Below, in pieces: positions 12,777 to 59,929 of a stretch of DNA of 64,000 nucleotides. The DNA lies in NCBI GenBank assembly GCA_031520405.1, contig GCA_031520405.1_4842.1; one strand, written 5' to 3'. Numbering within the stretch: position 1 is the first letter of the stretch; the number at the start of each line of letters is the position of its first letter. Both the position numbers and the translations under genes were made by a program. The notes beneath the pieces were generated by a model. That model was not told where the DNA came from. It was given only the letters and a program-made list of their open reading frames with translations, and did not search any database. The DNA is from a phage.

Positions 12777-12804
12777 TTTAATTCAGAAGCATTCAATAGA
12801 TGAA

Positions 12805-12834
12805 GGGGCTGCTATAATAGCAGCTCCTTTTGTT
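12805..12834 (+). terminator. intrinsic terminator
   Basis: ggggctgct / agcagctcc stem followed by ttttgtttatt; a TATAAT lies within the loop region. Confidence 0.55.
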
Positions 12835-12848
12835 TATTGGAGCACACC

Positions 12849-13511
12849 ATGTCGTATTCGCTCAAAGGGTTGTTGAAGCGCCCCGTACATCTATTTGTAA
12901 AACCACCTGCTGTCGAAGGGGAATATCCGGCACGAGGAGAGTTGTATTACGTTAAAGGCTCCAACGGTAGCGGCAAGTCCACTGTCCCTTCCTATCTGGC
13001 GGAGAATGATCCTCAGGCGTATGTCGTGACCTACAATGGCAAGATCATGCTCACAGTTTGCCCTTCCTATAACATTATCTGTATTGGTAAATATGACAAG
13101 TCTAAGTCTAAAGGTGTTGATTCCCTGAAAGATACCGAGCAGATGTTGTTCGCCTTGTCCATTGCTGATCAGCCGGAATATCTGAAATATGACGTGTTGT
13201 TTGAAGGAATCATCCCTTCAACTTTGCTCAGCTCATGGATTCCCCGCCTGACGCGCCCACCGCGCGAATTAGTCGTGCTCTTCATGGACACCCCGCTTGA
13301 AACCTGTGTTTCCCGTGTGAAATCACGCAACGGCGGCGCAGACTTCAATGAAAGCCTGGTTGTCGAAAAGTGGGAGAGAGTTCATGACCACCGCCAACGG
13401 CATAAAGGCTTGTTCCCTACCGTTCCCGCAGGTATGATGAAGTCCAATGGCCTGACTATAGAGCAGGCTGTTTTTGCGTTTCTCAATCGTGATTTTGGGA
13501 GTATTGATTGA
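12849..13511 (+). CDS. P-loop NTPase / kinase-like protein
   Basis: Walker A GSNGSGKST and Walker-B-like YDVLFEG; start set at the ATG with GGAG RBS (track ORF begins at an upstream TTG); first gene of the hydroxymethylase operon. Confidence 0.55.
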   Translation: MSYSLKGLLKRPVHLFVKPPAVEGEYPARGELYYVKGSNGSGKSTVPSYLAENDPQAYVVTYNGKIMLTVCPSYNIICIGKYDKSKSKGVDSLKDTEQMLFALSIADQPEYLKYDVLFEGIIPSTLLSSWIPRLTRPPRELVVLFMDTPLETCVSRVKSRNGGADFNESLVVEKWERVHDHRQRHKGLFPTVPAGMMKSNGLTIEQAVFAFLNRDFGSID

Positions 13512-14551
13512 TGGAAATTTTTGCTTTAAACAATAATGATATGCTGAAGAAGGCTGTGTTGGCCATCCGTGAACACGGCATTGAGTCAGATCCTGGCAAC
13601 GCAGAGATTAACACTGACGGCACTCGTTTCATTGATGGTGTAACAATTACAGTATCAGATCCACGTGACCGTTGGCTTTCCGTTGAAGGCCGCAACTCGT
13701 CGGCAATTGCTGCCATCGGTGAGACATTCTGGGTGTTGTCCGGACGTAATGATATCCGTTTCCTTTCGAAAGTCTTACCCCGCGCCGCCAACTTCTCTGA
13801 TGACGGTGTAACCTGGCGAGGCGCGTATGGCCCACGTCTGTACAATAATGGCCAGTTGGATAGTGTCATCAGCCGTCTGCGTAATAATCCCAACACCCGT
13901 CAGGCGTATCTCACCATCTATGATCCGGCGCTGGACTCAGATGAAGGTTTGGCCGCCCATAGTGAAACTGGAGAAGCCAAGACCAAGGACATGATCTGTA
14001 ATCTTGCTCTATTGTTCAGTATAACAGAAGGGCGATTGAATATCACTGTCATTAACCGCAGCCAAGATGTCTTGTGGGGCATGAGTTCAATCAATTTCAT
14101 TGAATTCTCTATCCTGCAAGAAGTTCTGGCGAAAGTGCTGAATGTCGAAGTTGGGTATTACAAACTGTTTTCTAACAATCTTCATTATTACAACAATGAA
14201 GTTAGTCGGAAACAACTCGGGGGTATCACTAAGAAGACCAAAACTTCTTCTGGGATGTACAATTCTTTGCTGGAATTCTCTTCAGAAAAAGTGAAGTCGC
14301 AAAAAGATATTTGTAATCTATTCCTCGGCGTGTTACATCACTGTGACATCGGCAGTGATTTTGGTAAAATCAGAGAACATCTGAAAGGATATCAAGCAGA
14401 CACGGGATTGATGATGGATATGTCATATTGCCTGTGGTGTCGCCTCAATGATACCAAAATTGACAAACGCCGTATCGCTGATGACGGTCTTCGTACTGCA
14501 TTACTGCATTCCCCTGTTGATCAGAAATTTATGTGGGGGTATGGCGAATGA
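13511..14551 (+). CDS. pyrimidine (dCMP/dUMP) hydroxymethylase, thymidylate-synthase fold, gp42-like, with about 100-aa C-terminal extension
   Basis: TRQAYLTIYDP and MICNLALLFSITEGRLNITVINRSQDVLWG parallel the T4 gp42 motifs SRRGIMIYTRP and FMCTNT...NMRSNDVVFGF (nucleophile Cys and downstream RSxD). Length 347 aa versus about 246 aa for gp42. Confidence 0.65.
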   Translation: MEIFALNNNDMLKKAVLAIREHGIESDPGNAEINTDGTRFIDGVTITVSDPRDRWLSVEGRNSSAIAAIGETFWVLSGRNDIRFLSKVLPRAANFSDDGVTWRGAYGPRLYNNGQLDSVISRLRNNPNTRQAYLTIYDPALDSDEGLAAHSETGEAKTKDMICNLALLFSITEGRLNITVINRSQDVLWGMSSINFIEFSILQEVLAKVLNVEVGYYKLFSNNLHYYNNEVSRKQLGGITKKTKTSSGMYNSLLEFSSEKVKSQKDICNLFLGVLHHCDIGSDFGKIREHLKGYQADTGLMMDMSYCLWCRLNDTKIDKRRIADDGLRTALLHSPVDQKFMWGYGE

Positions 14552-15117
14552 TGTACCAGAACCTTGAATTCTTCACGGGGCGCAAGCGCTCCGGCAAGGA
14601 CTTCTGTTTGGAGTCCCTGATCAGTTTTCATCATATTCAGGGTGATAAGGATATTCGTCGTCTGTCTTTCTCAGATGAACTGCGACGTGTCGCCAATTTC
14701 ATCTACCCATGGCTACCAGCGGAGGTGGAGGATGCTGTGAAGGACGTTCCATTCGTACACCCTGATAACCCCAAGGGCTTAACCCCACGGCAGATCTGGC
14801 TTCATCTGGGCAGCGATACGGGCTTGCGTTATGTACAACCAGACCTGTTCCTGTCATTCTTTAAACGATATCAACTTCCTTTGGTGGAGCAGAACCCACA
14901 CGTTCATTATATCGTGAGTGATTTGCGCACCCCTCAGGAATATGAATGGGCGCTGAGCACTAAATGTCCCATCACCCGCATTTCAAAGGCGGATCGCGGT
15001 GGTATCATAGAGGATGACATTGAGGCTTTCATTGATGAGATGAAAGTTGATTATGAATTTGTTAACCCATTTGAAGGTTGGCAACCATTCGTCAAATTTT
15101 ATAGGGATCGGAAATGA
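14548..15117 (+). CDS. deoxynucleoside monophosphate kinase, gp1-like
   Basis: GRKRSGKD P-loop variant matches the T4 gp1 signature (GVKRSGKD); ATG overlaps the upstream stop (ATGA). Confidence 0.6.
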   Translation: MMYQNLEFFTGRKRSGKDFCLESLISFHHIQGDKDIRRLSFSDELRRVANFIYPWLPAEVEDAVKDVPFVHPDNPKGLTPRQIWLHLGSDTGLRYVQPDLFLSFFKRYQLPLVEQNPHVHYIVSDLRTPQEYEWALSTKCPITRISKADRGGIIEDDIEAFIDEMKVDYEFVNPFEGWQPFVKFYRDRK

Positions 15118-15659
15118 TCACAGCAGAGCATATCAAAAATCTGCTCGAACTTCAAAAGGCCACCAACGTGGCCTATTTTGGGGAAGAGTGGAAGAAGCGC
15201 TGGACCGAAGTGGCGATAGCAAACTCCATCTATCGTGAGTGGGCAGAGTTTCTAGACGAAACAACCATAGACTGGAAGATCTATGGGGGTGGTAAGCATT
15301 GGCGACAAGTGGATGCCATATACGAGTTGGTGGACGTTGTTCACTTCATGCTCTGTGCTGTCCTGCAGGAGGAAGACAAACCACACGATATTCCAGAAAT
15401 GGTGAGATTCGTTCAGGCGCAGCCAATTCAAACCCCTCACGACCTCAGGAAAGTGACTGAACTGTTCACGTATTTCATGTCACACCCTCTTCGGAATGTT
15501 TTGGCTACCTTCTTGGCGTGTGCTTGTGGTTATCTAGGACTGGACGCCGAAACTTACATGCTGGCACACAAACGCAAAAATGATCGCAATCGGCTGCGTG
15601 CTGCTGGCGGTGCGAACTACGATAAGTCCGCAGAAACCCCTCTGACCCTGGAGTTCTAA
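15114..15659 (+). CDS. dCTPase/dUTPase-like all-alpha NTP pyrophosphatase (gp56-like)
   Basis: ELVDVVHFMLCAVL resembles the T4 gp56 ELVDIFHFVLNMFVGL core; start overlaps the upstream stop. Confidence 0.5.
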   Translation: MITAEHIKNLLELQKATNVAYFGEEWKKRWTEVAIANSIYREWAEFLDETTIDWKIYGGGKHWRQVDAIYELVDVVHFMLCAVLQEEDKPHDIPEMVRFVQAQPIQTPHDLRKVTELFTYFMSHPLRNVLATFLACACGYLGLDAETYMLAHKRKNDRNRLRAAGGANYDKSAETPLTLEF

Positions 15660-16189
15660 TGTTTACAGTTGTCGTATCATATTATGCGGAACATGCCCCG
15701 CGCATGGCAGAGAACTTCGCTGAGTTTATTAAACCAGGCGGTCATGTCGTTATTGCGACCAATTTCAAGAAAGAGCCAGATGGTGCGGCTACTGTAACAC
15801 AACATATTACAACCAAAGAGCCGGAAACACTTTTTAAACGCATTGAAGATTTTGCTTTTGGCGGGGAAGAAATTCCAGAGTCATTACAGCATATCTATTT
15901 TGAAGATGCGATATATTATGTTCATGCTATTCCAAAGGATGTTACAACTGAACAAATGATGTATATCCTGAATATCGCATTGAATGTTTCTTGTGTCAAC
16001 AGGGCACAGCACAATCGTCTGCGTAATATGTATTTAACAGAACGCGGGGGTTCCGAAATTAACGATGAAAAACTCCCGTCAATAATGGCGATTCATGAAG
16101 CAATCAATATATTGTCCAAGAAAGTCTTGGGCACCGATTTATTAATTACGATCAACAAGCAAGAGGAAACGAAATGGCCGATTCATTGA
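15659..16189 (+). CDS. hypothetical protein (176 aa)
   Basis: ORF from track, translationally coupled (TAATG) to the upstream gene. Confidence 0.5.
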   Translation: MFTVVVSYYAEHAPRMAENFAEFIKPGGHVVIATNFKKEPDGAATVTQHITTKEPETLFKRIEDFAFGGEEIPESLQHIYFEDAIYYVHAIPKDVTTEQMMYILNIALNVSCVNRAQHNRLRNMYLTERGGSEINDEKLPSIMAIHEAINILSKKVLGTDLLITINKQEETKWPIH

Positions 16190-17259
16190 TGGCTCGCATG
16201 CTCAAGACAGCAAAGAAACTGGACCCGAATGCCGAAGTGCTGTCAAAGACCGATGCGCTGAAGCCTGACATTATTTGCAGTACGGGTATTCCTATTCTGA
16301 ATTTGGCCTGGTCCGGTCGTATTGATGGTGGTCTGATATCAGGCATCAAACAGTTGGTGGGGGATTCTCGTACATTCAAAACCATGTTTGGGCTGGTGGA
16401 TGTTAAGGCTTACATGGATAAGTTTCCTGATGCAATTTGTATCTTCGCGGATTCAGAAGGCGGTGCGAATGAAAACTACTGGACATCTATGGGTATTGAC
16501 ATGGACCGTGTCTTGTATCTGCCGATTGAAAACGTTGAAAAGACGAAGATCAAGCTGACACAGCTTCTGAACGATGCACAGAAAGGTGACAAGATCATCG
16601 TATTCATTGACTCAATCAGCCAGTTGCCGTCTACCAAAGAAGTTGATGATGCCATCGCGGGCAAAGACACGCAAGATATGACCCGCGCTCGCGCTCTCAA
16701 TAGTTTTTGGCGTGTTATCACCCCGTTGGTCACTGAAAAGAAATTCGTTTTGGTATGGATCAACTCGTACTATGATGAAATCGGGAACCAATACGCCGAG
16801 CCGAACATCAAAGGCGGTAAACAGGGGTTCCTGTCTTCTAACCAATTGTGGTTCATCACGCGTTCTCAAGTTAAAGAAGACAAAGACCTTTTGGGATGGC
16901 AGTTTACAGTCAACATTATGAAAGGCCGCTTTGTCCGTGAAAAAGCCAAGTTCCCTGTCACTGTGTTGTATGAAGGCGGTATTGACCGTTGGTCCGGTAT
17001 GTTAGAAATTGCGCGCATGCTGGGGTATGTGGATTTGGTGAGTGGTTCTTGGTATCAACGCACTGCCAAAGGCGGGTTTGATCCAGAAAAAGAAAAGAAA
17101 TATCGTAAGGCAGAGCTGGGGGATGACTTCTGGTATCCGCTGCTGGAAAACCCAGACTTTGTTGACGATGTGAACAACATGTTCGGTATCTCTCAGAGTT
17201 CGGTTATGCCTGCAGATATGCTGGAGCGCCTCGATAATGTCATCAAAACAACCGAGTAA
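16174..17259 (+). CDS. uvsX: UvsX recombinase (RecA/Rad51 family)
   Basis: Collinear with T4 UvsX (IPILNLAWSGRIDGGL, LVGDSRTFKT, DAICIFADSEGG, IVFIDSISQL, DMTRARALNSFWRVITP); 361 aa. Confidence 0.85.
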   Translation: MADSLMARMLKTAKKLDPNAEVLSKTDALKPDIICSTGIPILNLAWSGRIDGGLISGIKQLVGDSRTFKTMFGLVDVKAYMDKFPDAICIFADSEGGANENYWTSMGIDMDRVLYLPIENVEKTKIKLTQLLNDAQKGDKIIVFIDSISQLPSTKEVDDAIAGKDTQDMTRARALNSFWRVITPLVTEKKFVLVWINSYYDEIGNQYAEPNIKGGKQGFLSSNQLWFITRSQVKEDKDLLGWQFTVNIMKGRFVREKAKFPVTVLYEGGIDRWSGMLEIARMLGYVDLVSGSWYQRTAKGGFDPEKEKKYRKAELGDDFWYPLLENPDFVDDVNNMFGISQSSVMPADMLERLDNVIKTTE

Positions 17260-17566
17260 TATTGCAGGGGGAGGAGACTCCCCCGTTAATTACAAAATCA
17301 TCGACCCTGGTTCTGATCAGTTAGCAATAATCGAAATAACGGAAGGCAAATTCCGTGGCGTTCAATTTCGTATAGGGAAAGTGGGTGTCCATTTAGATAA
17401 TGGAGAGCCTCGGTTATCCTTTACAACAGATATATTGAAGAAACCATGGCGTTTGTTATTTGTTAATTTGAAAGAAAATGACTTGTTCACTGTGGTGTCT
17501 GGGGATATCTTAGTTGATCTGATACAGCAAAATGCTCAGGATTACAACAAAATTTTGGTGGGGTAG
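17237..17566 (+). CDS. hypothetical protein (109 aa)
   Basis: ORF between uvsX and the helicase gene; overlaps the uvsX 3' end. Confidence 0.45.
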   Translation: MSSKQPSNIAGGGDSPVNYKIIDPGSDQLAIIEITEGKFRGVQFRIGKVGVHLDNGEPRLSFTTDILKKPWRLLFVNLKENDLFTVVSGDILVDLIQQNAQDYNKILVG

Positions 17567-17572
17567 TTGCCA

Positions 17573-18997
17573 ATGTTACTCGAATCTGTCGTGCTTTCCC
17601 AATTAATCTATAACGAAGAATATCAAAGAAAGATCCAGCCGTATTTGAAAGCCGATTATTTCGATAACGAAGGCGAGAAAATTATATTCGGTCTCATTGA
17701 CCATTACACTTGCGAATATAATGCTCGTCCTTCGGTTGAAGCGTTGTCTATTATGCTGGAAAAGACTTCGCTCAACGAACACGTATTTGAACAAGCTATT
17801 TCTGCTCTTGAGAATATCAATGACAACACATTCCATCAGGAATGGCTTGTAAAAGAAACAGAAAGTTGGGCGCGGCAGAAAGCTGTTCATAATGCGATCA
17901 AACACGCCGTCAACATCTATGGTGATGAGAAACGTAAAGATGAGATGAACACGATTCCAACTCTCCTACAAGAGGCGTTGGCGATAAGTTTTGATTCTTA
18001 TCTTGGCCATATCTATTGGGAAATGGCTGAACAACAATACGACCACATGAACTCTAATGAAGCGAAGATTCCTTTCGCTGTAGAGATATTCAACAAAGCG
18101 ACTCGTGGTGGTGTTGGTAAGAAAACGCTGAACATCGTGACGGGTGCAATTAATGCGGGTAAGACAACAACTCTGATTGATTTGGCTGCTGGTTACTCCG
18201 AGCAAGGGTTGAACGTATTCGTATTCACCCTAGAAGTGGCTGAGAACGTCTGGCGTCACCGCCTTGATGCCCGTATGATGCGCAGGGACTTCGAGTCCTT
18301 AGAGAAGCTCTCACGACATGAATATGTCGCCACGATACAAAAGTTGCGAACTCGTCAAGACGGTTCCATGAAGGGTGATATTGTTATCAAGGAATATCCT
18401 TCGGGCGCGGGGCATACAGGTTTGTATCGTCGTGATATTCTTGATTATGCGACTGCAACAGGAATTACACCCGATGTCATCATTATTGACTACTTGGGGG
18501 AATCTGCATCTTCTCGCCTTCCCGCTCACTTGATGCAAAACACCAACGTGTATTATACATCCGTGGCGCGAGAATTCCGTGCGCTTGGATTTGAATTTGA
18601 TTGCCCTGTATGGACAGGTATGCAATTTAACCGTGAAAAACAATCGGCGACTGATGGTGATATTAGCGACCTGGCAGATGCTATCGGTATTCCGAAGGTT
18701 GCAGACTTCATCATGGCGTTCTATGCCCCTGATGAACTGGCGGCTGTTAAGAAAGCCCGAGCGTCTATCTTGAAAAACCGTTATGCCAATAAACAGAAAC
18801 TCAAATCGTTCTTGTTCGGTATGGATCAAGATAAACAGATATTGTTTGACTTGGATTGGAATGAAGTCAAGCGAGACCTGACAGAAGAGGAAGCCCGTTA
18901 TGTTGAGAATGTTCATATCAAACATGACTTAAACAAAACAGGCGACGTAAATGATGTCAAGAAAGCCGAGACCGTGAATAATTGGAATTTCGGTTAA
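17573..18997 (+). CDS. 41: replicative DNA helicase gp41 (DnaB family)
   Basis: Walker A GAINAGKTT, DnaB-like C-terminal motifs, 475 aa; start taken at the ATG 6 nt downstream of the track TTG. Confidence 0.85.
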   Translation: MLLESVVLSQLIYNEEYQRKIQPYLKADYFDNEGEKIIFGLIDHYTCEYNARPSVEALSIMLEKTSLNEHVFEQAISALENINDNTFHQEWLVKETESWARQKAVHNAIKHAVNIYGDEKRKDEMNTIPTLLQEALAISFDSYLGHIYWEMAEQQYDHMNSNEAKIPFAVEIFNKATRGGVGKKTLNIVTGAINAGKTTTLIDLAAGYSEQGLNVFVFTLEVAENVWRHRLDARMMRRDFESLEKLSRHEYVATIQKLRTRQDGSMKGDIVIKEYPSGAGHTGLYRRDILDYATATGITPDVIIIDYLGESASSRLPAHLMQNTNVYYTSVAREFRALGFEFDCPVWTGMQFNREKQSATDGDISDLADAIGIPKVADFIMAFYAPDELAAVKKARASILKNRYANKQKLKSFLFGMDQDKQILFDLDWNEVKRDLTEEEARYVENVHIKHDLNKTGDVNDVKKAETVNNWNFG

Positions 18998-55596: not shown

Positions 55597-56832
55597 TCAG
55601 CGCTTCAACAAAGACATGAGGTTTACACTGGTCGACTTCGGATTGTCCTCTATCTTTCGGACGGGCATTTTCAGATTAGTGTAAACCTCAGATGGTTCCC
55701 AACGCGTACCCTGCTGCAGGTGCCATATATGTAGAGGAACACCCGTCTCAAAGAACACAGGCATCTTCCACTTCTGGACGCCAGGAACGTGCCCTGTAGG
55801 AGCTTTTTCGCACAACAGGGTATCTGGTAGCCAGAGGGAACGGGCTTCCCAGAGAGGCGCACAGGAGTATTCAGGCCAAATACGCTCCATATAATCGATC
55901 TCGTCCCATGTACGCTCGGCGTCCCACCCGATGTAACGGGTATTCTTCAGTCGGAAGAATTTCTTCAGCCAACAAGCACCGGAGGTCTCAAAGTTCAGAC
56001 GATTGATAAACGTGATGTGGCCGAACTCTTCAACGCATTCCTGAAATGCTTTCTCAAGGTCGGTTTCGAGTATATCACATTCTTCGTCTGTAATAGGACA
56101 ACCGTTGATCTTTTTCTTCCCGTGCTTGGTCACCCAGTCGTCACGGTTTGACAAGAATGCCGCGCCGTTGCGGTTGGACTCGCTGCCATCGCGGTCACGC
56201 AACATGAAGCCAGGGACGTCTATATCCCATATGTTACCGAAGACCATGTTCAGGGCTTCCAGGAAGTTCCATGCGCTCAGGCGACCGAAGTATTTCCATG
56301 ACATCGCCGTATTCCACAGTTCAGTGAACTGGTCTTCCTTGGTAGTGCATTCCAACATCCAACGAAAAGAATCCATTTGGGTTTTACCACCCAACCAATC
56401 GATATAGGACTGAACGCACGGAATCATCTTCGACTTACGATAACGACAATCTGTATCGAAGCGCATACGATCAAAGTTCAGGTTATACCAATCAGAAAAT
56501 CGCTGAAACTCTTTCGGAGATTGTGGGGGTACAGGAAATTCACTGTAAATTGTCCATGGTCCAATCCCATTATAGCAACAACCCCACAAAAAGGCCATCC
56601 AAATCTTGCGCTCGATCTTCTCGAGCTGTGTGATGCCTTCTGTAACCTCTATGGCATAATCCATCAGACGGACTTGCTGGTTATGCTCTTCAGTGTAGGA
56701 TAGCGCCTCCACCCATGCCTTGAGCAGGTACATGCGATTTTCTGGCTTACGATAATCTACTGCCAGATCAATCGGGTATTTCCATTTTTCAGGGGCTTTA
56801 TATCCCTGCGGCATTTTAGAAATGTGTATCAT
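55597..56832 (-). CDS. hypothetical protein (411 aa), Trp/Cys-rich, candidate enzyme of unknown function
   Basis: Long conserved-looking ORF with no motif I can assign; co-oriented with a P-loop kinase-like gene and small membrane proteins. Confidence 0.55.
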   Translation of the reverse strand: MIHISKMPQGYKAPEKWKYPIDLAVDYRKPENRMYLLKAWVEALSYTEEHNQQVRLMDYAIEVTEGITQLEKIERKIWMAFLWGCCYNGIGPWTIYSEFPVPPQSPKEFQRFSDWYNLNFDRMRFDTDCRYRKSKMIPCVQSYIDWLGGKTQMDSFRWMLECTTKEDQFTELWNTAMSWKYFGRLSAWNFLEALNMVFGNIWDIDVPGFMLRDRDGSESNRNGAAFLSNRDDWVTKHGKKKINGCPITDEECDILETDLEKAFQECVEEFGHITFINRLNFETSGACWLKKFFRLKNTRYIGWDAERTWDEIDYMERIWPEYSCAPLWEARSLWLPDTLLCEKAPTGHVPGVQKWKMPVFFETGVPLHIWHLQQGTRWEPSEVYTNLKMPVRKIEDNPKSTSVNLMSLLKR

Positions 56833-57588: not shown

Positions 57589-58494
57589 CTAACCCTTACT
57601 CAACAGGCCGAGAAGGGATACAGAGGACTTTGTTACCTCTCCCTTGGCGCTCGCCTTGGTTTTAGATTTGGTCGCCTTCTCAGGGACTCGATGCGCTAGA
57701 GGATCATCCCCACCGACTTCACGCGTCATTGGGTCAGTTTCACAGAATCCGTAGAAATCTTTGATGTCCAGACCCATGGCGTGAAACTCACCACGCATTT
57801 GATGATGAATAGCGTTGCCAATCACCCACAAAGGTGCATCAAACGGCATCATGGCTAATTCGCTATCATTTCCTGTTTTGAATTCTTGAGTGTTTGTAGA
57901 CGATTGGCGATACAACACGTCTTGACCGCTGTAATCATTGACCACCACTTCCCAACCCAGCGCCAGCATTTCAGTCTTCGACTTCTCAAACTCCTTGGAG
58001 TAAGATTCGTTGCGTGACCAGCCGGAGTCCCCCGCTTCCTTACCAGAGCGTCCACGGATGCGAGCATCGTACTGATAGCGGTCAGGGTATGCAAAGTACA
58101 GCAGTGCCAGTGATTCAATCGGATAGTTCTTGAACATCCATTCAGGACGCCATTTATCCGACAACATGAGGGGTTCACCCTCGCACACCAAAGTGTAACC
58201 CTGAGCCAGCCAGCCTTTGACCAGATCACGGGCGATATCACCCGAGCCTGTGGCGGCGTGGATGGCGTCCATGGAAGTCCAGGAAGCCAGACCGGATTTG
58301 TTGGACACAGTATACTGGCCAACGAAGATTAACTTCAGCTCTTCGAATTTCAGACCGAATGGGCGCGTCTTGTCACCAATGGTGTAGGTGAGTTCAGTAG
58401 GCTCCAGCTTAGTTCGGAGCCATTCGATGAACTGGACCACTCTCGTACCCTTGCCCACGCCACTTGTTCCCTTCACTACAATTATTTTAGCCAT
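57589..58494 (-). CDS. P-loop kinase-like protein (adenylate-kinase-type GxxGxGKGT) with C-terminal extension
   Basis: N-terminal VVKGTSGVGKGT Walker A of the NMP-kinase type; about 130 extra C-terminal residues of unknown fold. Confidence 0.55.
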   Translation of the reverse strand: MAKIIVVKGTSGVGKGTRVVQFIEWLRTKLEPTELTYTIGDKTRPFGLKFEELKLIFVGQYTVSNKSGLASWTSMDAIHAATGSGDIARDLVKGWLAQGYTLVCEGEPLMLSDKWRPEWMFKNYPIESLALLYFAYPDRYQYDARIRGRSGKEAGDSGWSRNESYSKEFEKSKTEMLALGWEVVVNDYSGQDVLYRQSSTNTQEFKTGNDSELAMMPFDAPLWVIGNAIHHQMRGEFHAMGLDIKDFYGFCETDPMTREVGGDDPLAHRVPEKATKSKTKASAKGEVTKSSVSLLGLLSKG

Positions 58495-58835
58495 TATGCA
58501 TCTTCCTCAATACGCCAGCTCACACCGCCCATCCATGGTGCCCAGAACACAGCAACCTGTGGGCGGCCATTCTCTTCAAACTTCACTTTATACTGGTCGT
58601 CGAAGTTATAGAAAATTTCATCGTCATCTGGTGCCATACCGTTTTCTATCAGAACACGCTTTAACTCCAGCGCCGCACCAACGGAAGTGGGTGTGGTTTG
58701 TTTACGAATGAAGTTGTTCACATGGATAATAACGCCATCCATATCGCTATCACCGGAACGCTTGTCTGGGGTTTCCCCAAACTTGGATTGTTCTTGCACG
58801 ATGTCCTCCTCAATGGACGTATTGATAATGGCCAA
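58494..58835 (-). CDS. hypothetical protein (113 aa)
   Basis: ORF from track; acidic. Confidence 0.45.
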   Translation of the reverse strand: MAIINTSIEEDIVQEQSKFGETPDKRSGDSDMDGVIIHVNNFIRKQTTPTSVGAALELKRVLIENGMAPDDDEIFYNFDDQYKVKFEENGRPQVAVFWAPWMGGVSWRIEEDA

Positions 58836-59592
58836 TCAGGCGGTTCACCACTTCGACAATATTGCGGTTCAGGAAGTCGAAGTGGTTCTGGCCTTCTACT
58901 GGTTTAATATAAAGCATATCTTCCGAGTTCGAAAGATCCAGTTTTTCATAATTTCCCTGAGGAACAAAGATGACAAAAATATTGTTCATCGCACAGGGTT
59001 CAACGTATTTCGGGTTATCATCAATTAAAACATCACCTGCCAAAAGATGCTTTTCGTCGGTGCTGACAAACCCGTTGAAGATGCCAGGGAACTTGTCATA
59101 GACAAACTGGCGCTTGCTGCGCTCGTGTTCTGGCTCACACTTAGATACTGCGATCAATTCAACATTTTCAAAGTCTTCGAGAAGGATCTTCTTCAGATTC
59201 ACCAGGAACTCGTAAGCGCCTGGAAGCGGGTTCATCTTGGCATACAGGTCCGGCATGCGCCACCAATCCATAGGATCACGTCCTGTAGGTGAATCCATCC
59301 ATTGACCAGCAACAAACACACGGCGCGTCAACCATGCTGGGTGAGCGCGTTCCCGCATGAGGATCGCCAAATCACCAGCATGAGCCATATAGCACTCTTT
59401 GGTGATACGCTGGAAATCATTGGGATAATCATGACAACCCATGTTTTCAGCAGCAGCTTTTGAATTGGAAATATTAAACCAATCCACCCAAGGGGAGAGG
59501 CTATCAACCAAAGTCAAGTCTACGTCTACCAGGATACGATACATTCCACCGATTTTAGAATTGGCATCATACAGACCAACATGATTATTCAT
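58810..59592 (-). CDS. HAD-superfamily 5'(3')-deoxyribonucleotidase-like protein
   Basis: HAD motif I VDVDLTLVD (DxDxT) near the N-terminus and a DD motif (GDVLIDDN) near the C-terminus; start set at the ATG with GGAGAAG RBS. Confidence 0.5.
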   Translation of the reverse strand: MNNHVGLYDANSKIGGMYRILVDVDLTLVDSLSPWVDWFNISNSKAAAENMGCHDYPNDFQRITKECYMAHAGDLAILMRERAHPAWLTRRVFVAGQWMDSPTGRDPMDWWRMPDLYAKMNPLPGAYEFLVNLKKILLEDFENVELIAVSKCEPEHERSKRQFVYDKFPGIFNGFVSTDEKHLLAGDVLIDDNPKYVEPCAMNNIFVIFVPQGNYEKLDLSNSEDMLYIKPVEGQNHFDFLNRNIVEVVNRLIGHYQYVH

Positions 59593-59929
59593 CAGACTTC
59601 TCCACTTGATCATAACCAGTTGCGGTGCATTGCTCTTCTGTGCAATCTGCATACAGAACCACAGAAGATTCCTTCACGTAAGTGGTACAGTGATAGGTTT
59701 CATCTTCCTGGATGGAATCGTCATAATTGCAAACAGTTTGCAACGGACCAGGAGTGGTGTTATCCAACGCAGCATGTGCCTTGATGGTGTCTTCCATCTT
59801 ATTCACCGCTTGCTGATTGGTGAACGTCGGCGCATCGAGGTCAACAGTAGACGCAACGTCCAGAAGGGTAGAGCATGCAGTGGTAGAGAAAGCCAGAGCA
59901 CACACCAGAAGAATCTTATTGAGTTTCAT
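59585..59929 (-). CDS. predicted lipoprotein
   Basis: MKLNKILLVCALAFSTTAC: signal peptide with a lipobox-like Cys; 114 aa. Confidence 0.45.
   Translation of the reverse strand: MKLNKILLVCALAFSTTACSTLLDVASTVDLDAPTFTNQQAVNKMEDTIKAHAALDNTTPGPLQTVCNYDDSIQEDETYHCTTYVKESSVVLYADCTEEQCTATGYDQVEKSDE

Follow-up and report, generated by a model that had tools for sequence, protein, structure and literature searches.

The four genes at positions 12849-15659 (+ strand) of the window, by which we mean the whole stretch of 64,000 nucleotides analysed, very probably form the conserved module of the ViI-type thymidine hypermodification pathway that covers its nucleotide-pool steps and the first step at the DNA level. 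The window belongs to a Kuttervirus (Ackermannviridae) genome that is 95-98% identical to PhaxI, ViI and other phages, and the DNA identity of the four-gene region to ViI and PhaxI is 96.8-97.9%. A sequence-only reading of this DNA had predicted a non-canonical pyrimidine in the phage DNA, and this agrees with the modified base published for ViI: ViI DNA contains 5-(2-aminoethoxy)methyl-dU (5-NeOmdU), which has also been reconstituted in vitro (PMC5889632, PMC8989533), takes the place of about 40% of T, and blocks many restriction enzymes. The system is already known: its prediction dates from 2011, and its chemistry and enzymes were worked out in 2018-2021. Its base is hmU, not hmC. That 5-NeOmdU is also the final base of this isolate is assumed from ViI, whose second kinase and transferase are 87-90% identical to those encoded here.

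The four coupled genes and the motifs named for them were all present on the + strand: ORF1 (12849-13511, 220 aa) with GSNGSGKST, ORF2 (13511-14551, 346 aa) with KDMICN, NRSQD and WGMSSIN, ORF3 (14548-15117, 189 aa) with GRKRSGKD, and ORF4 (15114-15659, 181 aa). Read directly from the sequence, the ORF1/ORF2 junction is TGATG with an overlap of 1 nt, the ORF2/ORF3 and ORF3/ORF4 junctions are ATGA with overlaps of 4 nt each, and a GGAG-like Shine-Dalgarno sequence precedes every start in the block. The coupling runs past these four genes, through ORF5 (15659-16189, +), which encodes a phage ACT-like domain protein (Pfam PF24021, E=9.9e-89), into uvsX (16174-17259); ORF4 and ORF5 overlap by 1 nt (TAATG), and ORF5 and uvsX by 16 nt. 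ORF5, which sits between the dUTPase-family gene and uvsX, is at most a candidate member of the pathway. The 5' boundary of the block is an intrinsic-terminator-like hairpin at 12802-12830 (+), with a 13-bp stem followed by a T-run, at the end of the preceding gene. By megablast, the region was matched in 271 phage records, with a coverage of at least 80% in 209, and the four genes are real and conserved. An antisense ORF at 13483-13896 (137 aa), which lies within the coding sequence of the kinase and the hydroxymethylase, was treated as spurious. There was no excess of internal promoters, with 23 promoter-like sites against 20.6 +/- 3.9 expected in shuffled sequence; these sites, one of which (14343-14370) falls in the part of ORF2 that encodes its C-terminus, were rejected as evidence. 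The ORFs range from 0.40 to 0.50 in GC content around a window mean of 0.44, with no clear sign of foreign origin, and a search of the window for structured RNAs and tRNAs found none.

ORF1 (12849..13511, +) matches the Pfam family of 5-hydroxymethyl-dU (5-hmdU) DNA kinases (PF18748) at E=1.7e-116, scoring 387 bits where 27 is the cut-off, has its Walker A sequence at nt 12957-12983, and is 99.5% identical to Vi01_061c (YP_004327432), that is, ViI gp67, for which phosphorylation of 5-hmdU in DNA has been measured (PMC8989533). By this near-identity to an assayed protein, ORF1 is assigned as a 5-hmdU DNA kinase, abbreviated 5-HMUDK. The upstream P-loop protein had been noted as having no equivalent in the T4 gene 42 neighbourhood, and it does represent a step that T4 lacks, but it is a characterised enzyme rather than an unknown NTPase. 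A search for a solved structure of this DNA kinase found none, the best E-value being 0.06. The RefSeq product names for ORF1 are "terminase small subunit", the same as the label of PHROG 800, which matches ORF1 at E=1.5e-68. If these names were taken at face value, ORF1 would be a small terminase subunit with no part in base modification; we give this reading practically no credence, given the Pfam score, the P-loop and the kinase activity measured for a nearly identical protein, and because ORF1 lies among early nucleotide-metabolism genes and not beside packaging genes. The hydroxymethylase gene is adjacent to it, and members of PF18724 (55597-56832) and PF18747 (57589-58494) are also found in the window.

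The substrate of ORF2 can be read from its catalytic core (residues 1-236; 13511..14218, +), which has the thymidylate-synthase (TS) fold and a sole Pfam match, to PF00303 (residues 67-234). Glu71, Cys163 (13997-13999), Arg183, Asp186, His225 and Tyr227 are invariant in 53 homologues and correspond to E58, C146, R166, D169, H207 and Y209 of E. coli ThyA. The base-specificity position had been described as ambiguous, an ambiguity that the residue alignment removed: Asn195 (14093-14095) aligns with ThyA Asn177, MilA Asp186 and T4 Asp179, and it has been reported that Asn or Asp at this position decides between uracil and cytosine (PMC5175136). Asn195 is kept in 51 of the 53 homologues, and Asp is found there in only the other 2. 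Because Asn195 aligns with ThyA Asn177, the base is assigned as uracil, not cytosine, and ORF2 as a dUMP and not a dCMP hydroxymethylase. Therefore, although a pathway going beyond a simple hydroxymethyl base had been rightly anticipated, its framing around hmC gives way to hmU. It could be argued that ORF2, like T4 gp42, hydroxymethylates dCMP, with ORF4 as a dCTPase and hydroxymethyl-cytosine in the DNA, since T4 genes 42, 1 and 56 form a formally parallel set and the nearest solved structure is that of the cytidylate hydroxymethylase MilA. However, besides the scarcity of Asp at the specificity position, hmC is not substituted for C in phage CBA120, the modified base of ViI DNA is T and not C, and the kinase encoded by ORF1 is specific for 5-hmdU in DNA, all of which make a cytosine pathway extremely improbable.

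The reaction is indicated by Asp160 (13988-13990), which is present in all 53 homologues, aligns with Leu143 of E. coli ThyA, and stands three residues ahead of Cys163, a spacing shared with T4 D145 and with the corresponding Asp of MilA and SPO1. An acidic residue at the Leu143 position is a signature of hydroxymethylases (PMC13326640), and because Asp160 replaces the water-excluding Leu143, the exocyclic methylene would be hydrated and not reduced. The active site is not that of a canonical thymidylate synthase, which had been named as the alternative. Arg130 and Ser184 are of the deoxyribose type, in contrast to Lys133' and Ala176 of MilA, which are of the ribose type (PMC5175136). A point against the assignment is that ORF2 has Gln131 where ThyA has its second phosphate-binding Arg (Arg127), a state common to SPO1 gp29 and 23 of the 53 homologues. 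The identity of ORF2 to SPO1 gp29 is 34.6% (E=3e-27), compared with ~24% (E~5e-4) for T4-type td, and the family profile of ORF2 scores SPO1 gp29 at 248 bits, E. coli ThyA at 93 and T4 gp42 at 52. The second-best PHROG for ORF2 is 5131 (E=3.6e-60), the family of SPO1 gp29. Production of 5-hmdUMP from dUMP and methylene-THF by ORF2 is predicted on homology and these residue signatures.

GenBank and RefSeq records mostly label ORF2 as "thymidylate synthase", while the literature calls its ViI counterpart a dUMP hydroxymethyltransferase (PMC5889632). If the record label and the single Pfam match were followed, ORF2 would be an ordinary thymidylate synthase making dTMP, the hydroxymethyl group would arise by another route, and the about 60% of ViI T positions that stay T would fit such an enzyme. 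We consider this very unlikely. The replacement at the Leu143 position speaks against it, and so does the absence from ORF2 of the ThyA-type C-terminal tail that closes over the folate, in place of which there is a helical domain. Furthermore, ORF2 scores only 32-53 bits against the NCBIfam TS equivalogs, whose cut-offs are 108-405, and no TS comes nearly as close to it as the dUMP hydroxymethylase of SPO1. In CBA120, 3H-thymidine was not incorporated, and the TS homologue of this phage falls in a cluster with hmU phages (Kutter 2011); for ViI, no alternative of the TET/JBP type is known.

The dUMP hydroxymethylase assigned to ORF2 runs about 110 residues beyond the last core element, in a stretch (14219..14551, +) that comprises a linker (residues 237-263), a MilA-type C-terminal helical domain (264-346) and the stop codon; the AlphaFold model places helices at 264-338. 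The roughly 100 extra C-terminal residues reported for nt 14258-14551, which encode residues 250-346, are real, but they are not unrecognisable, since by fold comparison ORF2 is of the MilA type, in which the TS core is followed by an additional domain of five helices that is found throughout the MilA/dUMP-hydroxymethylase clade, is confined to it and diverges fast. Truncated forms of MilA were insoluble. This equivalence is seen only by fold comparison: no sequence similarity of the ORF2 C-terminus to MilA was detectable, the profile alignment ending at residue 234, and nothing significant was found for the region in Pfam, PHROG or NCBIfam. A profile of residues 237-346, built from 19 homologues, gave only 3 matches among 1.84 billion representative proteins, two of them to full-length TS-like proteins and one to a protein of 69 aa that matches in this domain only; they yield no functional lead. 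The domain is a structural appendage and not a second catalytic module. As a rather unlikely possibility, residues 264-346 may be a lineage-specific docking module and not a folding aid, which would tether the hydroxymethylase to the dNMP kinase, the dUTPase-family enzyme, 5-HMUDK or the replisome, so that 5-hmdU nucleotides would be channelled as in the T4 dNTP-synthetase complex; the universal retention of the domain together with its variable surface is the one point that may speak for it.

The genes for the third and fourth proteins had been called gp1-like and gp56-like, and both family assignments were confirmed, whereas the description of the fourth as a dCTPase was not. Family-level profiles were needed for both, because BLAST gave short motif matches only. 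ORF3 (14548..15117, +) belongs to the dNMP kinases of the T4 gp1 family, as both ORF3 (E=2.4e-48) and T4 gp1 (E=1.8e-65) match PHROG 139 and their P-loops align (GxKRSGKD); the BLAST match between the two was weak (E=0.003), extending over 21 residues of the P-loop alone. ORF3 had no Pfam or NCBIfam match above threshold and no match in the PDB below E=0.87. The CBA120 homologue has been annotated as a dNMP kinase (Kutter 2011), and ORF3 is a predicted 5-hmdUMP kinase. ORF4 (15114..15659, +) belongs to the all-alpha (dimeric) dUTPase-family NTP pyrophosphatases of the T4 gp56 family, with 37.2 bits against PF08761 (cut-off 22.9) and E=1.5e-42 against PHROG 173, which also contains T4 gp56; by BLAST, only short motif matches to T4 gp56 were found. 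Among PDB entries it matched the dUTPase of C. jejuni best (1w2y, E=8.5e-5); the ExxE and ExxD motifs of the two align, and the metal-binding residues E42, E45, E71 and D74 are present. A dUTPase/dTTPase activity has been proposed for this type of protein by analogy (Kutter 2011) and is predicted for ORF4 as well, dCTP, as in T4, being the other possible substrate.

Further genes of the pathway are located far from the block, on the - strand. A second 5-hmdU DNA kinase, HMUD2 (57589..58494; PF18747, E=2.5e-150), is 87% identical to ViI gp243, whose kinase activity has been demonstrated (PMC8989533). An amino acid:DNA transferase of the clade 2 aGPT-Pplase type (55597..56832; PF18724, E=1.9e-57) is 90.5% identical to ViI gp247, a serine:DNA transferase whose activity was demonstrated with the purified enzyme (PMC8989533). 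The B-family DNA polymerase of the phage (59990..62986; 98% identical to that of ViI by tblastn) must, if the published ViI pathway applies, incorporate 5-hmdUTP.

Taken together, these genes suggest the following sequence of reactions, of which we infer the pre-replicative steps from family membership and active-site residues. ORF4 would produce monophosphates by hydrolysis of dUTP and probably also of dTTP, thereby excluding these triphosphates from DNA and supplying dUMP. Cys163 of ORF2 would then attack C6 of dUMP, a methylene would be taken from methylene-tetrahydrofolate, and hydration would give 5-hmdUMP, which ORF3 would convert to 5-hmdUDP and a host NDP kinase to the triphosphate for incorporation by the phage polymerase. 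The post-replicative steps have been biochemically demonstrated for the ViI proteins and would by analogy proceed likewise here: ORF1 would phosphorylate 5-hmdU in DNA at its hydroxymethyl group, with one phosphate taken from ATP, the serine:DNA transferase would exchange the phosphate for the side-chain oxygen of serine, and a PLP decarboxylase (ViI gp226, located outside the window) would yield 5-NeOmdU at about 40% of T positions.

The main value of this analysis is one of calibration: the raw sequence sufficed to infer a non-canonical pyrimidine chemistry that had been established in 2011-2021. The names "thymidylate synthase" and "terminase small subunit" in the records hide a modification pathway in Ackermannviridae, including phages under development for biocontrol and therapy, whose DNA is resistant to many restriction enzymes, with consequences for cloning and sequencing workflows. 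Asn195, Asp160, and Arg130 with Ser184 provide a quick sequence test for substrates in the clade of ORF2.

Among known systems, ViI (Vi01) is the closest, although a separate isolate, with 95-97% DNA identity over 25 kb. Its genes Vi01_061c to Vi01_058c (gp67 5-HMUDK, "thyA", dnk and dUTPase) have the same order and overlaps as those of the window, with protein identities of 99.5% (ORF1), 100% (ORF2), 98.9% (ORF3) and 89.5% (ORF4), the dUTPase-family protein having a divergent patch; homologues of its second kinase and serine:DNA transferase are likewise present, at 87-90% identity. The dUMP hydroxymethylase gp29 of SPO1 belongs to the same clade as ORF2 and shares the WG-x4-N specificity loop, one residue longer, the Asp-x-x-Cys arrangement and the TRQ phosphate motif; its C-terminal region is likewise long and can be aligned to the ORF2 family profile. 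However, gp29 has 383 aa and a C-terminal sequence not recognisably similar to that of ORF2 by BLAST, and the SPO1 pathway, which has no 5-HMUDK, ends at 5-hmdU with full replacement of T. MilA, the CMP 5-hydroxymethylase of mildiomycin (PDB 5jnh, 5b6d; PMC5175136), is the closest solved structure, but has Asp186, Lys133' and Ala176 (cytosine, ribose) where ORF2 has Asn195, Arg130 and Ser184 (uracil, deoxyribose). T4, with genes 42, 1 and 56 and beta-glucosyltransferase, likewise combines a hydroxymethylase, a gp1 kinase, a gp56 pyrophosphatase and a DNA-level enzyme, and its order of hydroxymethylase ... uvsX - small ORF - gp41 helicase is syntenic with the window. In T4, however, cytosine is modified (Asp179), gp42, of 246 aa, is without the C-terminal domain, and at the DNA level the base is glucosylated, whereas in the window this step would be phosphorylation followed by amino-acid transfer.

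The four plus-strand open reading frames of the sequence-only reading are present at 12849-15659 exactly as it described them: ORF1 (12849-13511; 220 aa, GSNGSGKST), ORF2 (13511-14551; 346 aa, KDMICN, NRSQD, and WGMSSIN), ORF3 (14548-15117; 189 aa, GRKRSGKD), and ORF4 (15114-15659; 181 aa). Their junctions are TGATG (ORF1/2), ATGA (ORF2/3), and ATGA (ORF3/4), and a GGAG-like ribosome-binding site lies ahead of each. The view that they form a four-gene operon holds for the overlap and coupling of these genes, but the coupling runs on past ORF4. A gene for a 176-aa protein with a PF24021 'phage ACT-like' domain (15659-16189, plus strand) overlaps ORF4 by 1 base and is overlapped by 16 bases by uvsX (16174-17259, plus strand). 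Next come an ORF of 109 aa and the gene for a helicase of the gp41/DnaB type. ORF1 through the helicase gene make up a block of eight replication and nucleotide-metabolism genes, not a four-gene operon. The gene for the PF24021 protein is translationally coupled and lies between a dUTPase-family gene (ORF4) and uvsX. The gene upstream of ORF1 ends in a strong terminator-like hairpin (12802-12830). Within the window (1-64000), neither tRNA nor tmRNA genes were found, and no Rfam family scored at or above its gathering threshold.

In megablast searches, 271 phage records matched the region, the best being Escherichia phage PhaxI (97.9%), Salmonella phages GEC_vB_GOT and sal1 (97.0%), and Salmonella phage Vi01/ViI (96.8%), all of which belong to the genus Kuttervirus of the Ackermannviridae. 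Several Kuttervirus genomes are 95-97% identical to the window over its first 25 kb. When translated, ORF1 is 99.5% (Vi01_061c), ORF2 100% (Vi01_060c, 'thyA'), ORF3 98.9%, and ORF4 89.5% identical to the ViI proteins.

The Pfam thymidylate synthase (TS) match on ORF2 is limited to residues 67-234. The NCBIfam TS equivalogs, whose cut-offs are 108-405 bits, give it 32-53, and therefore ORF2 is not an ordinary ThyA. ORF2 was aligned with its homologues (53 sequences in the alignment) and with SPO1 gp29, whose record is annotated as dUMP hydroxymethylase, T4 gp42, E. coli ThyA, which was confirmed to be identical to the wild-type PDB sequence, and a fragment of MilA, the CMP 5-hydroxymethylase of mildiomycin biosynthesis. 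Glu71, Cys163, Arg183, Asp186, His225, and Tyr227 of ORF2, corresponding to E. coli ThyA Glu58, Cys146, Arg166, Asp169, His207, and Tyr209, are invariant among the homologues. The specificity loop of ORF2, WGMSSIN, like that of SPO1 gp29 (WGTFGAN), is one residue longer than the loops of TS (GLPFN), T4 gp42 (GFRND), and MilA (GAVSD). The base-specificity position, which had been considered ambiguous, is decided by the alignment to ThyA, T4 gp42, SPO1 gp29, and MilA. According to the MilA structure paper (PMC5175136), enzymes acting on cytosine substrates have Asp at the position of MilA Asp186, while those acting on uracil substrates have Asn; ORF2 has Asn195, conserved in 51 of the 53 homologues and equivalent to ThyA Asn177 and T4 Asp179. 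HMMER likewise pairs Asn195 with TS Asn177, and with MilA Asp186 when the family profile is used. ORF2 is thus of the uracil type, and the earlier leaning toward hydroxymethylcytosine was wrong.

Two further signatures are informative. The first lies three positions ahead of the nucleophile, where ThyA carries Leu143, believed to keep water out; the corresponding residue is acidic in T4-type hydroxymethylases and in MilA (PMC13326640). At this position ORF2 has Asp160, three residues ahead of Cys163, as do all 53 homologues (T4 Asp145; Asp in MilA). Ribose preference is associated with MilA Lys133' and Ala176, in place of which deoxyribose enzymes have Arg and Ser (PMC5175136); ORF2 has Arg130 and Ser184, each found in 47 of the 53. 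The base, hydroxymethylation, and sugar signatures all point to ORF2 as a predicted dUMP hydroxymethylase. The similarity scores agree with this assignment: tblastn with ORF2 found SPO1 gp29 at 34.6% identity (E=3e-27) and T4-type td genes at ~24% (E~5e-4), the family profile gave 248 bits for SPO1 gp29, compared with 93 for E. coli ThyA and 52 for T4 gp42, and the second-best PHROG is the family of SPO1 gp29 itself.

Among the homologues, Lys occurs at position 130 in 6/53 and Ala at 184 in 6/53, the residues of the MilA ribose signature, and Asp occurs at the base-specificity position in 2/53. The clade is therefore probably mostly dUMP-type, with a few UMP/CMP-type or cytosine-type enzymes. 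In addition, residue 131 of ORF2 (13901-13903) is Gln in place of ThyA Arg127, the second phosphate-binding Arg; Gln is also found in SPO1 gp29 and 23/53 homologues, and the remaining members keep Arg.

The C-terminal extension of ORF2, for which no motif had been recognized, is a MilA-type feature of the clade. An AlphaFold model built on the homologue alignment (mean pLDDT 94.3, pTM 0.93) contains a linker (237-263) followed by five helices (264-338), where pLDDT stays at 92-98 as far as residue 340. In a Foldseek search, MilA ranked first, with TM 0.76/0.82 over the full length, while ThyA structures covered just ~265 columns. The MilA-like fold makes the extension a known structural feature of the ORF2 clade; it is present in 52/52 other members of the alignment (324-381 aa), and the profile alignment to SPO1 gp29 (383 aa) runs through residue 358. 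Among Ackermannviridae, the extension diverges more quickly than the core does (core identity is 88% for homologue P0006, for instance, against 54% for the helical part), and its family-wide conserved positions are exclusively hydrophobic or Gly/Ala. Searched against 1.84 billion representative proteins, an extension-only profile matched only three: a pair of full-length TS-like proteins and a protein of 69 aa in which the extension alone is matched. We read the extension as a structural appendage; MilA truncations were insoluble (PMC5175136). Five metagenomic ORF2 homologues (P0062, P0096, P0039, P0055, and P0086) are 495-590 aa long, and their ~170-250 further C-terminal residues, which had no Pfam match, may be an uncharacterised fusion partner.

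The P-loop protein ORF1, regarded earlier as an unknown without equivalent beside T4 gene 42, matches PF18748 '5-hmdU DNA kinase' (E=1.7e-116, 387 bits against a cut-off of 27). Because of this match and its near-identity to the assayed ViI gp67 (Vi01_061c, YP_004327432), ORF1 is a characterised enzyme: ViI gp67 and gp243, like their homologues, were shown to phosphorylate the 5-hmdU hydroxymethyl group within DNA, with ATP as the donor of a single phosphate (Lee et al. 2021, PMC8989533). RefSeq and PHROG-based/Pharokka-style records of many Ackermannviridae label this gene 'terminase small subunit', because PHROG 800 bears that name; we consider this a mis-annotation, contradicted by Pfam and the published biochemistry.

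The 'gp1-like' and 'gp56-like' labels for ORF3 and ORF4 hold at the family level. ORF3, without a Pfam or NCBIfam assignment, belongs to PHROG 139 (dNMP kinase; E=2.4e-48), as does T4 gp1 (E=1.8e-65), with which it has the GxKRSGKD P-loop in common. ORF4 scores above the Pfam dUTPase_2 threshold and falls in PHROG 173, to which T4 gp56 belongs; its best solved relative is the Campylobacter jejuni dimeric dUTPase, and it retains the ExxE...ExxD metal ligands (E42, E45, E71, and D74). In an hmU phage, the expected substrates would be 5-hmdUMP for the ORF3 kinase and dUTP/dTTP for the ORF4 pyrophosphatase, as was proposed for phage CBA120 by Kutter et al. ORF4 is just 89.5% identical to its ViI counterpart, compared with 99-100% for its neighbours, and 9/19 differences fall within residues 50-64, between the two metal-binding motifs, pointing to a patch that has either recombined or evolved fast.

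Other pathway genes lie on the minus strand of the window: the second 5-hmdU DNA kinase, HMUD2 (57589-58494; PF18747, E=2.5e-150; 87% identical to ViI gp243), an amino acid:DNA transferase (55597-56832; PF18724, E=1.9e-57; 90.5% identical to ViI gp247), and a DNA polymerase 98% identical to that of ViI. ViI gp226 (PLP decarboxylase) and gp160 fall beyond the window limits. Between the DNA polymerase and HMUD2 genes, a 280-aa protein (58810-59652, minus strand; PHROG 420 'unknown function') matches Pfam NT5C (5'-deoxynucleotidase, E=8.7e-8) and is a candidate for the nucleotidase that hmU-type phages are expected to use for clearing dTMP.

The prediction of a non-canonical pyrimidine that goes further than simple hydroxymethylation was right in spirit, and the system is already known, including a hydroxymethylase of the type phage that is 100% identical to ORF2. 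5-(2-aminoethoxy)methyl-dU (5-NeOmdU) was identified in ViI DNA and reconstituted from gp67, gp160, gp226, gp243, and gp247 (Lee et al. 2018, PMC5889632), and the order kinase, serine transferase, decarboxylase was set with purified proteins (Lee et al. 2021, PMC8989533). It replaces ~40% of T, and the genes are conserved across Ackermannviridae (2024 review); CBA120 does not incorporate 3H-thymidine (Kutter et al. 2011). As residues and homology suggest, ORF4 would hydrolyze dUTP/dTTP, ORF2 would hydroxymethylate dUMP, ORF3 would phosphorylate 5-hmdUMP, and the phage polymerase would incorporate the 5-hmdU nucleotide. ORF1 and HMUD2 would phosphorylate 5-hmdU in DNA, and O-serinylation by the transferase followed by decarboxylation would yield 5-NeOmdU, as shown for near-identical proteins.

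The gene order at 13511-18997, from the hydroxymethylase to uvsX, a small ORF, and the gp41-type helicase, mirrors that of the T4 locus (42 - b-gt - segA - uvsX - 40 - 41), and in both phages an enzyme acting on the hydroxymethyl group at the DNA level is encoded beside the hydroxymethylase gene.
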